64,000 bases of DNA from Halioglobus sp. (GCA_028825045.1 JAPKAY010000011.1:17161-81160); one strand, 5' to 3'; shown: positions 8,893 to 22,381, numbered from the stretch's first letter. Numbers and translations: made by a program. The notes: generated from the sequence alone by a model not told the origin.

Positions 8893-10065
8893 TCAGCCCC
8901 GCCCAAGAATCATTGCGCCCGTGGGCACACCAACGCCACTGCTTACCAGCACATGCTCTACCGCTTTTTCTGGCTGGCTGGTGGAATCGCAGCGTATCAG
9001 ACGGACACCCTCAGCGATATTGTTCATACCATGAATATAGCCTTCAGAAATAAGGCCACCGTGGGTGTTATTGGGCAGGCGTCCATCGACATCAAGCGCG
9101 CCTTCACGCACCAGGTACTTGCCCTCCCCGGCGCCACAAAAACCGAAGCTCTCCAGTTGCATAATAATTTCAGAGGTAAAAGCATCATAAAGACAAGCCG
9201 CATCAATATCATCAGGGCCGAGACCGGACATGTCATAAATGCGCTTGGCCGCCAGCTCCATTTCCGGAAGCGATATTAATTCATCGCGGTAGTAACTAGT
9301 CATCTGTTCCTGTCCGCGGCTGGAGGCCTGGGTCACGGCGCGAATGACGGCCGGTTTTTGTTTCAGATCCCGTGCCCGCTCTGCACTAGTCACCAGTATG
9401 GCGCAGGCGCCGTCTGTTTCCTGGCAGAAATCGTAAAGACACAGTGGTTCAGCAATCTGTTTTGAGTTCAGATACTGTTCCATTGTTAGCGGTTTACCGT
9501 AACCGTAGGCACGCGGGTTACGCAGAGCATGATTGCGCTGTGAAATTGCAACGCGCCCCAGATCCTCCCGAGTAACACCGTACCGATGCATATATTTGTT
9601 GGCGACCATGGCGATCCACGACCCCGGTATCAACATGCCGTAGGGCGTATACCAGGACCAGTGGATAAGGTCGCTGCTGCTAATGTCGCCGGAGACGCCC
9701 TGGCCCATGCGCTTGCCCGAGCGTCCATTCATTGCGCGGTAACAAACGACATTACTGGCCTGACCCGTAGCCACTGCCATCGCCGCCTGAGCTATAGTGC
9801 CCACCGCGGCACCGCCGCCGTAGTTGATCTGGCTGAAAAAAGAGAGGTCGCTGGCACCAACGGCGCGAGCCACCTCCACTTCATCACTCGAATCGAGGGT
9901 GTAGGTAACCAGTCCATCGATTTCTCCAGGACTAATTCCGGCATCGTCACAAGCGGACTTAATGCACTGCGCCGCGAGGGAAAGCTCCGACACGCCCGAT
10001 TGTTTGGAAAAATCGGTTAGTCCAATACCTGCAATGGCCGCTTCATCTTTTAGAGAAATGGGCAT
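8893..10065 (-). CDS. Ltp2-type thiolase-fold steroid side-chain retro-aldolase, copy B
   Basis: AAIAGIG, NYGGG (no nucleophile Cys), DFCQETDGA, LYDAF, NTHGG..SEGYIHGMN. ATG 10065 overlaps the DUF35 stop (TGATG). Confidence 0.88.
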   Translation of the reverse strand: MPISLKDEAAIAGIGLTDFSKQSGVSELSLAAQCIKSACDDAGISPGEIDGLVTYTLDSSDEVEVARAVGASDLSFFSQINYGGGAAVGTIAQAAMAVATGQASNVVCYRAMNGRSGKRMGQGVSGDISSSDLIHWSWYTPYGMLIPGSWIAMVANKYMHRYGVTREDLGRVAISQRNHALRNPRAYGYGKPLTMEQYLNSKQIAEPLCLYDFCQETDGACAILVTSAERARDLKQKPAVIRAVTQASSRGQEQMTSYYRDELISLPEMELAAKRIYDMSGLGPDDIDAACLYDAFTSEIIMQLESFGFCGAGEGKYLVREGALDVDGRLPNNTHGGLISEGYIHGMNNIAEGVRLIRCDSTSQPEKAVEHVLVSSGVGVPTGAMILGRG

Positions 10066-10475
10066 CAAGCACTCCCCGCCAACTTAAAAACAGGCAGTTT
10101 AAATCCATCCGGATCACGCTGGATCAACATCTCAACCTGCAGTCCGAAATCTACGTCCTCAGGCTCGCATCCGACCAGTTGTGAGGTCACTCGCGTACCC
10201 TCCTCCAGGTCTACCAGCACAATAACCAAAGGATATTCATAACCTGGAAACTGAGGATGGCGCAGAACGGTATAACTGCAGATGCTGCCCTTGCCCGACG
10301 CCTCCACAGCATCCCACTCGAGCGAGTGGCAATCTCCACACATCGGACGTGGCGGATGGCGCAGTGTTAGGCACCCCAGGCAGCGCTGTATACCCAGCTT
10401 GTCATCCGCAGCCATTTTCCACCACCAGGCGTTGTCCAGGCCCATTGGTGGCTTTATGCGGGTAGCTTCGGTCAC
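10065..10475 (-). CDS. Stand-alone DUF35 (Zn-ribbon + OB-fold) protein
   Basis: QRCLGC...HPPRPMCGDC Zn ribbon followed by an OB fold. Closely resembles the C-terminus of 13640..14614. Confidence 0.9.
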   Translation of the reverse strand: MTEATRIKPPMGLDNAWWWKMAADDKLGIQRCLGCLTLRHPPRPMCGDCHSLEWDAVEASGKGSICSYTVLRHPQFPGYEYPLVIVLVDLEEGTRVTSQLVGCEPEDVDFGLQVEMLIQRDPDGFKLPVFKLAGSA

Positions 10476-10478
10476 CGC

Positions 10479-20296: not shown

Positions 20297-21211
20297 ATGG
20301 GAGACCTGACAGGCAAAGTTGCTGTGATCACTGGCGCAGGCCGTGGGCTCGGTCGCGAAGAAGCGATTCAACTGGCGCATCAGGGCGCGCGCGTGGTCAT
20401 CAATGACATCAATCGACCCGAGGCGGTTGAAGCCGCTCAATCGGCTGTAGAGGAGATCAAGGGGTTTGGCGGCGAAGCAATGGTCGTATTGGGCGACTGT
20501 GCTGACAGTACCGACGCGGAAAACCTGATGAAGTCGACACTGGATGCCTACGGAGACTTAAACATCATGGTGAACAACGCGGGCTTTTGCCGCGACAAAA
20601 CCATTTTTGGCATGAGCGATGACGAGTTTGATTCAGTGGTACGAGTGCACCTGCGCGGTCATTTTGTGAACATGCGTAACGTCACCGCATATTGGCGCGA
20701 CAAGGCCAAAGCGGGTGAAGACGTGTACGGCCGCCTTATTAGCACATCTTCGGAAGCTGCCATCTACGGATCAGCAGGGCAGCCAAATTATGCATCTGCC
20801 AAAGCAGGCATCATTGCTATGACCATGGGTGCTGCGCAACTACTCATAAAATACGGTATTACCTGCAACGTCATCATGCCCCGCGCACTGACCGACATGA
20901 CGGCAACAGGCCAAACCGCAGAAATGTTCCAGGCACCGGCCGATGGCAGTTTCCACGCGTTCGATCCGGCCAATGTCGCTCCGCTGGTAGGCTACCTGGC
21001 TTCACCGGAAGCAAGCAAAATTTCCGGCGAGGTAATGGTGGTCTGGGGCAACGAAGTTGCCGTAGTCCAACGCCCCAGCCTTGCAGACGCCATTATCAAT
21101 CCCAAGGGCGCTCAAAAATGGGACGTCGACGACCTTCATTCTGCCCTGTCCACCCAGTACGATGACAACTATGTCAGTGTATGGGGTGGGTATTCAGTAC
21201 CCCCTACTTAG
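20297..21211 (+). CDS. hsd4A: Hsd4A-like SDR (3-hydroxyacyl-CoA / 17-beta-hydroxysteroid dehydrogenase type)
   Basis: TGAGRGLGREEA, VHLRGHF, AYWRDKAK, GRLISTSSEA and NYASAKAGI. Confidence 0.72.
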   Translation: MGDLTGKVAVITGAGRGLGREEAIQLAHQGARVVINDINRPEAVEAAQSAVEEIKGFGGEAMVVLGDCADSTDAENLMKSTLDAYGDLNIMVNNAGFCRDKTIFGMSDDEFDSVVRVHLRGHFVNMRNVTAYWRDKAKAGEDVYGRLISTSSEAAIYGSAGQPNYASAKAGIIAMTMGAAQLLIKYGITCNVIMPRALTDMTATGQTAEMFQAPADGSFHAFDPANVAPLVGYLASPEASKISGEVMVVWGNEVAVVQRPSLADAIINPKGAQKWDVDDLHSALSTQYDDNYVSVWGGYSVPPT

Positions 21212-21328
21212 GCGACTATGCGCGCTTTATTGCCGGCGGGTACTGTCGTGATGGACGGGCGGCAAAGAACATTAATCGGCTACCAACTCTCACGCTTGAC
21301 GAATACGAACGGGGATCCGTAACCACCA

Positions 21329-22381
21329 ATGACAACGACAACGAACAATAAGAGCGACCTCGACCTTCCAGCCCTAACTGGCAAGCGCACAGGCCCCTAC
21401 TGCAGCTTCAACCCAGTGAGCAGGGTCCAGATCTGGCAATGGTGCTCCGCCATGGGAGACCGCAATCCACTCTATCTGGACGATGACTATCGCAGCCGTG
21501 CTGGCTTCGATCAGGTGGTTGCACCTCCGGGCATGATGCAGATGTGGACAATGCGCAACGTCAACTTCGAATACGCACCGGGCACCACTGCTGACTCCAC
21601 TTACAGCGTTTTTGATGTACTGGGTGAACACGGCTTACCCGATATTGTCGCTGTGAGCTATGACATTAGCTTTCACCGCCTGTTACTCGAAGGTGATCGA
21701 GCACACCACTACACTAAAGTGGAATCCATCACACCATTGAAACAAACTGCATTGGGGAAAGGACACTTTGTAACCGAGCACACAGAGTTTCTGGATCAAA
21801 ACGACAGCCTCTATGCCGATGCCATGATCACCTATTTTGTGTACCGATCAGAGCAAGCGACTGCTGACGCCAGCGGAGCTGATCAACCGGCACTCACAGC
21901 ACCCGTTAGTGAACCTCTCTGGAAGAGTGACTATTCGGACATCAGCTACCAGTCGTTACACGAAGGCCAGGCGCTGCCACAGTTAGTCATTCCCATTACC
22001 CATAAACTTATTGTGAGCTGCGCCCTCGCGACGCAGGACTTCATGGATGTTCACCACAACCCCCCCGCTGCTCAGGACGCAGCTATGCCCGACATATTTA
22101 TGAATATACTTACCACCAATGGCCTGTGCGCTCGCTATCTAAGCGATTGGGCGGGACCCGCAAGTCGTCTGAAACGTATCAGTTTCAAACTGATGACGCC
22201 TAACGTACCGGGCGATACCATGACAATGCAGGGGCAGATTGTGAAACTTGAACAGGTCGACAATGAATCGCATGTAACGATAGATTTTGCAGGGAGAAAC
22301 AGTCGCGGATTTCATGTTACAGGATCCGCCACACTGCTGTTAATGGTTAATGGTGCTGCGCCCGCCTACGTTGCCCAATAA
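21329..22381 (+). CDS. Fused ChsH2-N-domain + ChsH1-type double-hotdog hydratase (no DUF35)
   Basis: N-half WQW..MGDRNPLY...APPGM matches the N-domain of 13640. C-half ALATQDFMDVHHN..DIFMNILTT..DWAGP..PNVPG matches 14611. Confidence 0.8.
   Translation: MTTTTNNKSDLDLPALTGKRTGPYCSFNPVSRVQIWQWCSAMGDRNPLYLDDDYRSRAGFDQVVAPPGMMQMWTMRNVNFEYAPGTTADSTYSVFDVLGEHGLPDIVAVSYDISFHRLLLEGDRAHHYTKVESITPLKQTALGKGHFVTEHTEFLDQNDSLYADAMITYFVYRSEQATADASGADQPALTAPVSEPLWKSDYSDISYQSLHEGQALPQLVIPITHKLIVSCALATQDFMDVHHNPPAAQDAAMPDIFMNILTTNGLCARYLSDWAGPASRLKRISFKLMTPNVPGDTMTMQGQIVKLEQVDNESHVTIDFAGRNSRGFHVTGSATLLLMVNGAAPAYVAQ

Follow-up and report, generated by a model that had tools for sequence, protein, structure and literature searches.

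Steroid side-chain hydratases and aldolases are under study as drug targets in Mycobacterium tuberculosis and as biocatalysts for steroid synthons, and several arrangements of these enzymes have been described. In the known complexes it is the DUF35 domain, not the MaoC domain, that binds the aldolase, and a covalently attached DUF35 is the sole link between hydratase and aldolase (PMC11321319), so that a hydratase without DUF35 has no known tether to an aldolase. The MaoC and DUF35 halves of the Comamonas protein still give both activities when expressed separately (PMC12502768), and the zinc finger of the Shy DUF35 is of the C3H1 type (PMC12329534). Furthermore, ChsH3, CasD and CasQ are fused two-MaoC steroid hydratases without DUF35 that serve C5 side chains (PMC11321319), and ChsH3 pairs functionally with ChsB1 (PMC8204306). 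The mycobacterial HBC operon encodes a free DUF35 (ChsH4/msShy), a Sal-like aldolase (Atf1/msSal), an acyl-CoA dehydrogenase (ACAD) and a TetR regulator (KstR3) (PMC10398937, PMC11333196). Here, these systems are compared with the hydratase and aldolase genes of a 64,000-nucleotide stretch of Halioglobus sp. DNA (GCA_028825045.1, JAPKAY010000011.1:17161-81160), hereafter called the window.

A preliminary description of the window had recognised two sets of genes built from the same four domains. Set A comprises a hotdog protein with a C-terminal DUF35 (13640), a ChsH1-like hotdog (14611) and an Ltp2-type aldolase (15046, LtpA), and the second set comprises a fused double hotdog (21329), a stand-alone DUF35 (10065, DUF35B) and a second aldolase (8893, LtpB); genes are called by the lower coordinate of their reading frame (Table 1). 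All of these domain assignments are upheld by Pfam and the quoted motifs are present. The two sets had been read as two parallel machines, but we consider it moderately probable that the locus holds three modules instead, namely set A, a FadA5 thiolytic operon to which 21329 belongs, and a free DUF35B-LtpB cassette. What was observed or computed here is which domains the genes encode, their homology, their order and how far it is conserved, and the phylogenies; the substrates of all three modules are those we infer from them. The result is one of ordinary modular steroid catabolism and does not overturn current understanding.

Set A is a canonical igr-type module, and its proposed composition is confirmed by Pfam, by PDB matches and by PRK07855, the NCBIfam model for Ltp2 (cut-off 469 bits). 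The ChsH2-like protein 13640 matches the Pfam families FAS1_DH_region (5e-16), zf-ChsH2 and OB_ChsH2_C, and in the PDB the DUF35 of Thermomonospora curvata ChsH2 (TcChsH2) in 6OK1_B (4.9e-31) and the M. tuberculosis ChsH2 hotdog in 4WNB_A (5e-22); the zinc finger of its DUF35 reads CKSC-x10-CGEC. With 14611 it forms the two-polypeptide layout in which DUF35 is C-terminal on the inactive subunit, the hotdog signatures being GDTNPAY in 13640 (inactive, with Tyr for His) and RDFEPVHH in 14611 (catalytic). LtpA matches the Thermomonospora curvata aldolase TcLtp2 (6OK1_A, 6.4e-133) and retains the YDAF motif and the equivalent of Tyr344. The best PDB match of the ACAD alpha chain 12364 is 6WY8_B (Tcur3483; 6e-115), followed by 4X28_A, and that of the ACAD beta chain 10479 is 6WY8_A (Tcur3481; 2.6e-82). 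As these are chains B and A of one T. curvata heterotetramer, a single ACAD is split over the divergent promoter, and the arm with TetR and ACAD beta belongs together with the arm of ACAD alpha, ChsH2, ChsH1 and Ltp2. The layout of this divergon recurs in three relatives (L002, L007 and L012); a TetR reading frame occupies the same position and is 75% identical in L007 and L012, and TetR_N is called on the L002 orthologue. Set A would carry out the last (C3) side-chain round, with the heterotetrameric ACAD (12364 and 10479) acting first, the ChsH1/ChsH2 hydratase (14611 and 13640) second and Ltp2 (15046) third, the aldolase probably being docked on the hydratase through the DUF35 of 13640.

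The second set corresponds to set A piece by piece. In the pairwise BLASTP alignments proposed as a check in the preliminary description, 21329 aligned with both the N-hotdog of 13640 (23% identity, 3e-16) and, through its C half, with 14611 (40%, 3e-35). The DUF35 of 13640 and DUF35B are 48% identical (6e-50) and the two aldolases 55% (2e-166), and the cross pairs of N-hotdogs against C-terminal or catalytic hotdogs gave no match. As had been claimed, 21329 is a fusion of a ChsH2-type N-hotdog with ChsH1 that lacks DUF35: Pfam finds FAS1_DH_region (2e-15) and MaoC (7e-12) and finds neither zf-ChsH2 nor OB_ChsH2_C, and the N and C halves match M. tuberculosis ChsH2 (3.5e-20) and ChsH1 (5e-24), respectively, in the PDB. 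The N half carries the inactive ChsH2 signature D-x4-Y (D44..Y49), and the catalytic D-x4-H of the C half (D237/H242) is invariant across 40 homologues. An AlphaFold2 model (pLDDT 89, pTM 0.88) contains two hotdogs and a low-confidence or disordered linker of about 30 residues (residues ~175-205). Its top Foldseek matches are single-chain double hotdogs, including MSMEG_6754 and the hydratase 2 of MFE-2, and the PDB sequence search with 21329 matched no MFE-2-type hydratase. The protein is thus a single chain with a linker in place of DUF35, and departs from the two-polypeptide ChsH1-ChsH2 layout; two MaoC/hotdog domains on one polypeptide without DUF35 place it among the fused DUF35-less hydratases.

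Gene order places 21329 in a FadA5 thiolase operon. It is the third gene of an operon and lies immediately downstream, on the same strand, of a FadA5-type thiolase (19041; FadA5 structure 4UBV, 6.6e-145) and a ChsB1-like dehydrogenase (20297). The latter matches 2ET6 (1.7e-70) and 7LG9 (1.8e-67), a 317-residue short-chain dehydrogenase/reductase (SDR) that we take to be ChsB1, and scores 325 bits against PRK07792, under the cut-off of 414. Among 25 genomes of the genus comparison, in which orthologues (termed fused-1 or F1) were called at ≥58% identity to 21329, twelve carry an F1 gene (58-75% identical), and in eleven of these twelve FadA5 precedes it on the same strand at a distance of 1-1.5 kb. 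A scan of public named genomes with two very conserved peptide patterns, which returned only Halieaceae-like and Ketobacter-like relatives and is silent on distant phyla, gave 62 fused-hydratase loci, 32 of them in the F1 subclade. FadA5 lies within four genes in 24 of these 32, and the usual order is a divergent 155-residue MaoC gene followed by FadA5, the ChsB1-like gene, the fused gene and an SDR gene. No DUF35B or LtpB orthologue lies within 10 kb of any of the 62 loci, a count that says nothing on arrangements such as that of the window, where the distance is 11.2 kb; genus-wide coordinates were used for this question instead. The synteny search that had been suggested for the fused gene with a free DUF35-Ltp pair therefore went the other way: the orthologues of 21329 track FadA5-ChsB1, DUF35-LtpB moves independently, and 21329 belongs to the operon of FadA5, the ChsB1-like dehydrogenase and the hydratase, not with DUF35B-LtpB.

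This second module would perform thiolytic beta-oxidation rounds with FadA5 (19041), the ChsB1-like enzyme (20297) and two R-hydratases without DUF35, namely 21329, a fused pseudo-heterodimer, and 18308, which is Shy-like. As 21329 has no aldolase to dock, it would pass its 3-hydroxyacyl-CoA to the dehydrogenase and thiolase. The orthologue of 18308 stays beside FadA5 in L006, L007, L012 and L014. Its divergent orientation to FadA5 is also seen in genomes that lack the fused hydratase.

The third module consists of DUF35B and LtpB, whose genes overlap by one base (TGATG) between the stop of the former and the ATG of the latter. DUF35B is 47% identical to the DUF35 of TcChsH2 and 32% identical to that of Comamonas testosteroni Shy (CtShy), and its finger is of the ChsH2-type C4 form (CLGC-x10-CGDC, or C-x2-C-x10-C-x2-C), not the C3H1 form of Shy. 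Against the PDB, LtpB scores 439 bits with TcLtp2 (6OK1_A, 9.6e-131) and 138 bits with C. testosteroni Sal (CtSal; 9MYR, 2.4e-39). It keeps the base Tyr of YDAF and the equivalent of the acid Tyr344 (TcLtp2 numbering) and lacks Cys304 and Gln352 of Sal. LtpA and LtpB share the features of Ltp2 aldolases, with both catalytic tyrosines (YDAF and E(A/G)YIHG) and no thiolase cysteines there, and in both the equivalent of His296 is Ala. The Sal features (Cys304 in a YDCY motif, Gln in place of Tyr344 and a partner DUF35 of the C3H1 type) are absent from LtpB and DUF35B, and the Ltp-like genes of this genome that were aligned include no Sal-type aldolase (YDCY with Gln). YDAF recurs in a third Ltp2-type aldolase on contig C120, so that the proposed oxyanion-hole His is Ala throughout the lineage, and the aldolases of Ketobacter-type relatives keep the His. 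The idea that 10065 is a DUF35 split from the Shy-like 18308 was rejected, given its C4 finger, its identity of 32% to CtShy compared to 47-48% to ChsH2-type domains, and its position in the DUF35 tree as sister to the A-type.

DUF35B-LtpB is accordingly described as a free Ltp2-type cassette in which DUF35B is predicted to bind LtpB. Since DUF35 binds the aldolase and the split Comamonas halves stay active, such a cassette should work without a tethered hydratase. Free DUF35B probably stabilises or activates the aldolase as an alpha-beta-beta-alpha heterotetramer, the Tyr of YDAF would be the base and the Tyr344 equivalent the acid, and the pair would take up freely diffusing hydrated acyl-CoA. 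Most plausibly, LtpB cleaves a C3-type tertiary beta-hydroxyacyl-CoA, the likeliest being what the neighbouring ChsH1/ChsH2 would form from a steroid whose nucleus is differently substituted; the descent of LtpB, its type of chemistry and the fact that it often sits in the set A divergon point to such a substrate.

Across the genus the cassette travels as a unit. DUF35B and LtpB remain tightly adjacent wherever the pair is seen (L001-L005, L008, L010 and L013), and LtpB orthologues are 81-91% identical, far above the 58-75% of 21329. The pair sits within the set A divergon in 10 of the 19 genomes that carry LtpB, and the order TetR, ACAD, DUF35, aldolase is found both in the window (11644, 10479, 10065, 8893) and in L002. 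In all, the pair occupies at least five unrelated contexts: in Marimicrobium (L001/L008) it is 350 kb away, beside RPE65 and amidohydrolase genes, and ACAD beta abuts an epimerase gene; in wastewater Pseudomonadales (L003-L005) it is followed by an acyl-CoA (AMP-binding) ligase and a patatin; and in three further genomes (G005, G016 and G017) it stands alone among yet other neighbours. No common theme emerged among the neighbours of these stand-alone cassettes. LtpB occurs without F1 in eight genomes and F1 without LtpB in one, an association that is positive but not significant (Fisher p = 0.16). Genome G005, which has LtpB and no match to ChsH1, the fused hydratase or FadA5, was downgraded as proof that LtpB can act without these hydratases, being only 83% complete and carrying KshA. 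Separately, the locus of Candidatus Marimicrobium litorale (G010, L007) is syntenic with the window but lacks the DUF35B-LtpB-SnoaL4-OYE block and the fused hydratase there, all of which are present elsewhere in that genome.

Such conservation across genera, combined with neighbours as varied as RPE65/amidohydrolase, AMP-binding ligase/patatin and sulfatase/TauD/PQQ-ADH genes, could suggest that DUF35B-LtpB is a general, non-steroid retro-aldolase for other branched beta-hydroxyacyl-CoA, for instance derived from isoprenoids or sulfolipids. We regard this as quite unlikely, as LtpB is sister to the steroid LtpA clade inside the Ltp2 group, the pair is so often located in the set A divergon, and the reasonably complete LtpB-bearing genomes that were checked all have steroid markers such as KshA.

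The ancestry of the pieces further separates 21329 from the cassette. Ketobacter-type (K-type) gammaproteobacteria (L085-L091; for example L087:9878-12560) encode a split set, in which a ChsH2-like protein combines a hotdog with DUF35, the ChsH1-like hotdog is a protein of its own and the Ltp2 carries YDHF. K-type hotdogs are about 50-55% identical to the halves of 21329 (55% and 53%) and 25% and 44% identical to the set A hotdogs. In half-by-half trees, the fused proteins of F1 and F2 all fall in a single clade, whose sister is the split pair of the K-type (support 0.90 and 0.99), with set A and M. tuberculosis ChsH2 falling elsewhere. Because the fused clade is monophyletic and sister to the split pair, 21329 is traced to a single fusion with loss of the intervening DUF35: a ChsH2-like inactive hotdog would have been joined once to its ChsH1-like catalytic partner and the DUF35 between them lost. 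In K-type proteins, DUF35 is located where 21329 has its disordered linker. The fusion permutation originally proposed is thus borne out, since both halves of 21329 are placed with a split ChsH2(+DUF35)/ChsH1 lineage. In the DUF35 tree the A-type DUF35 is the sister of DUF35B (support 1.0), to the exclusion of the K-type, and in the Ltp tree LtpB and LtpA are sisters (support 1.0) and both K-type Ltp and TcLtp2 branch outside them; on these placements the cassette arose by duplication of the aldolase half of a machine like set A and is not a piece shed by 21329. The genome also holds further copies of every piece, with at least two close fused paralogues (C7 and C119), a distant fused gene (C120), at least three more free DUF35-Ltp pairs and a split DUF35-less hotdog pair (C120), so that missing and free DUF35 domains do not correspond one to one. 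The preliminary description had identified the DUF35 missing from 21329 with the one beside LtpB; the translational coupling it reported is real, whereas the identity fails, as DUF35B descends from set A.

It had been proposed that 21329, DUF35B (10065) and LtpB (8893) form a second physical complex, a permuted version of ChsH1-ChsH2-Ltp2 that acts on another side chain. In its favour, each of the four domain types occurs and is homologous to its counterpart in set A, translation of Ltp is coupled to that of DUF35, and the genes co-occur in 11 of the 12 genomes with the fused gene. However, 21329 lies in another operon, 11 kb from the pair, and is conserved behind FadA5-ChsB1, and LtpB is found in unrelated contexts and in eight genomes without F1; the DUF35B and LtpB lineage is that of set A and the hydratase lineage that of the K-type; the genome has additional fused genes and free pairs; and a covalent DUF35 is the only link in known complexes (PMC11321319). 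With operons, contexts and ancestries all separate, the proposal finds no support and is very unlikely to be correct.

Several observations nevertheless weigh against the three-module account. One is the co-occurrence just mentioned. Another is that the SnoaL_4-OYE pair, which trails LtpB here, trails F2 hydratases elsewhere, a hint of a shared pathway. In addition, half of the genus, Marimicrobium included, has FadA5-ChsB1 without the fused gene, which argues that 21329 is accessory to the FadA5 operon instead of being its core hydratase, a role that may fall to 18308. Finally, knock-outs in M. neoaurum reported in 2026 showed that ChsH1/H2-Ltp2 also serves the C5 round, so that Ltp2-type chemistry does not exclude a C5 substrate (PMC13753135).

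The same knock-outs, together with the gene content of the minus-strand operon (TetR, ACAD, free DUF35 and aldolase, as in the HBC operon), favour a functional coupling without physical contact, in which DUF35B-LtpB would be an HBC-like aldolytic bypass that competes with ChsB1 and FadA5 for the 22-hydroxy C5-CoA from 21329 and/or 18308. The proteins themselves argue otherwise: LtpB is Ltp2-type with Tyr/Tyr, not Sal-type by score or by Cys304/Gln352, the DUF35B finger is C4 and not C3H1, instead of a fused ChsE3/CasC-like enzyme the operon has the beta chain of a C3-type ACAD heterotetramer, and neither a Sad-type aldehyde dehydrogenase nor a reductance partner was found among the window genes. 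This coupling is therefore considered unlikely, and it is similarly improbable that the freed Tyr/Tyr Ltp2-type aldolase serves as a bypass for hydroxyacyl-CoA from 21329, its paralogues or 18308. If such a bypass were true, marine Halieaceae would use thiolysis and aldolysis side by side for one and the same side-chain round, as a proteobacterial counterpart of the mycobacterial HBC sub-pathway with an aldolase of a different clade.

Table 1. Hydratase, aldolase and associated genes of the window, with related genes on contig C120 of the same genome.
Feature	Position	Strand	Evidence and remarks
SnoaL_4 protein (8237-8878) and old yellow enzyme (OYE) flavoprotein (7167-8234), trailing LtpB	7167..8878	-	Pfam
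LtpB, second Ltp2-type aldolase	8893..10068	-	PRK07855, 571 bits; probable start 10065
DUF35B, stand-alone DUF35, 136 residues	10065..10475	-	Pfam zf-ChsH2 and OB_ChsH2_C only
ACAD beta, partner of 12364	10479..11699	-	Probable start 11630
TetR-family regulator, head of the minus-strand operon, divergent from set A	11644..12348	-	Conservation of the reading frame
ACAD alpha, ChsE-type, first gene of the set A operon	12364..13593	+	Pfam ACAD N/M/C; probable start 12421
ChsH2-like, inactive N-hotdog and C-terminal DUF35 (C4 zinc ribbon and OB)	13640..14614	+	Pfam
ChsH1-like catalytic MaoC hotdog, D-x4-H	14611..15042	+	Pfam MaoC; motif ALATRDFEPVHH
LtpA, Ltp2-type retro-aldolase of the igr-like operon	15046..16221	+	PRK07855, 569 bits
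Stand-alone MaoC hydratase, 155 residues, Shy MaoC homologue without DUF35, divergent from FadA5	18308..18775	-	PDB 8VWR (ShyMaoC), 1e-48
FadA5-type steroid 3-ketoacyl-CoA thiolase	19041..20216	+	NF005889, 616 bits (cut-off 515)
ChsB1/Hsd4A-like (3R)-hydroxyacyl-CoA dehydrogenase, MFE-2-type SDR	20297..21211	+	PDB
Fused ChsH2N-ChsH1 double-hotdog hydratase without DUF35	21329..22381	+	Pfam, PDB; probable start 21359
Split hotdog pair without DUF35	C120, about 29.37-30.4 kb		
Fused double hotdog, 409 residues	C120, 31614-32843		
Two HDCF thiolase-like genes resembling Ltp3/Ltp4	C120, 35052-37436		
DUF35 and Ltp pair	C120, 46458-48088		
Third Tyr/Tyr Ltp2-type gene and downstream free DUF35	C120, 71505-73114		

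The window is part of an 87.8-kb contig in a 3.8-Mb genome whose nearest named relatives are Halioglobus, Haliea and Marimicrobium (marine Halieaceae, Gammaproteobacteria). It is a steroid-catabolic locus, with KshA (KshA_C domain, 2.8e-57), a KstD-like flavoprotein, a P450 and the FadA5-type thiolase as markers. A protein with a carboxyltransferase domain is encoded at 50968-52593 (+), near KshA and KstD; acyl-CoA carboxylases have been invoked for C24-branched sterol side chains. Outside the window, contig C120 of this genome (G000) holds a second steroid-like island at 26-49 kb and 69-79 kb. In other Halieaceae (L009, L049, L051, L055, L058, L063, L064, L069 and L092) the SnoaL_4-OYE genes are found beside an F2 hydratase and an SDR; in four loci they directly follow a ChsH2-ChsH1-Ltp operon. 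A promoter and terminator scan of positions 6000-23500 gave counts not above those of shuffled sequences, and its result was not used.

Two elements are new here: a proteobacterial family of fused ChsH2N-ChsH1 hydratases of ChsH1/ChsH2 descent, with F1 members behind FadA5 and F2 members often beside SnoaL4-OYE-SDR, and a widespread, highly conserved free Ltp2-DUF35 cassette. The modularity of the steroid side-chain system is thereby visible at one locus. DUF35 appears to be kept where the hydratase feeds an aldolase and lost, with fusion of the hotdogs, where it feeds a dehydrogenase and thiolase, and the aldolase-DUF35 half can persist as a cassette of its own. The split K-type relatives and the 21329 family show cleanly the states before and after the fusion. 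Being very conserved and abundant in marine metagenome-derived sequences, the free Ltp2-type cassette also bears on marine sterol turnover.

When compared with described systems, 21329 is most similar in layout to ChsH3 (Rv3538), CasD and CasQ, which likewise combine an inactive and an active hotdog in a single chain without DUF35, and a DUF35-less 21329 would follow the same logic as these actinobacterial enzymes. As those enzymes go with ChsB1/Hsd4A and FadA5, 21329 is encoded beside FadA5 and a ChsB1-like dehydrogenase. Unlike those three, which were compared by description only, it is nearest to ChsH1/ChsH2 and the split K-type pair, and from its sequence the fusion looks to be independent of theirs. 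The minus-strand operon resembles the HBC (4-HBC) operon in that adjacent genes encode a free DUF35 of ~136-138 residues and a thiolase-like aldolase, accompanied by genes for an ACAD and a TetR regulator and separate from any MaoC domain. However, the HBC aldolase belongs to the Sal clade (56% identical to Sal1) and serves C5 side chains, whereas LtpB belongs to the Ltp2 clade with Tyr/Tyr, and in place of a ChsE3/CasC-like ACAD there is 10479, a beta chain whose heterotetramer also belongs to set A. As both DUF35-less fused hydratases (PMC11321319) and operons of a free DUF35 with an aldolase (PMC10398937, PMC11333196) have been published, calling the second set undescribed was too strong.

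Similarly, the Shy-Sal systems of C. testosteroni and Pseudomonas stutzeri Chol1 share with this locus the principle that DUF35 docks the aldolase, and 18308 is close to the MaoC domain of Shy; unlike Shy, it has no DUF35 and adjoins a thiolase instead of an aldolase. For set A, the best PDB matches are ChsH1-ChsH2-Ltp2/ChsE-type proteins themselves. It encodes the same five products with the same domain layout as ChsH1-ChsH2-Ltp2 and ChsE1-ChsE2 in M. tuberculosis (igr), T. curvata, C. testosteroni (ORF40-44) and P. stutzeri (Shy2/Sal2), including an inactive (Tyr) and an active (Asp/His) hotdog, DUF35 on ChsH2 and both Ltp2 tyrosines. It differs from these systems in having its two ACAD subunits on opposite strands of a divergon, and both aldolases of the window differ from TcLtp2 (YDHF) in the Ala that replaces His (YDAF).

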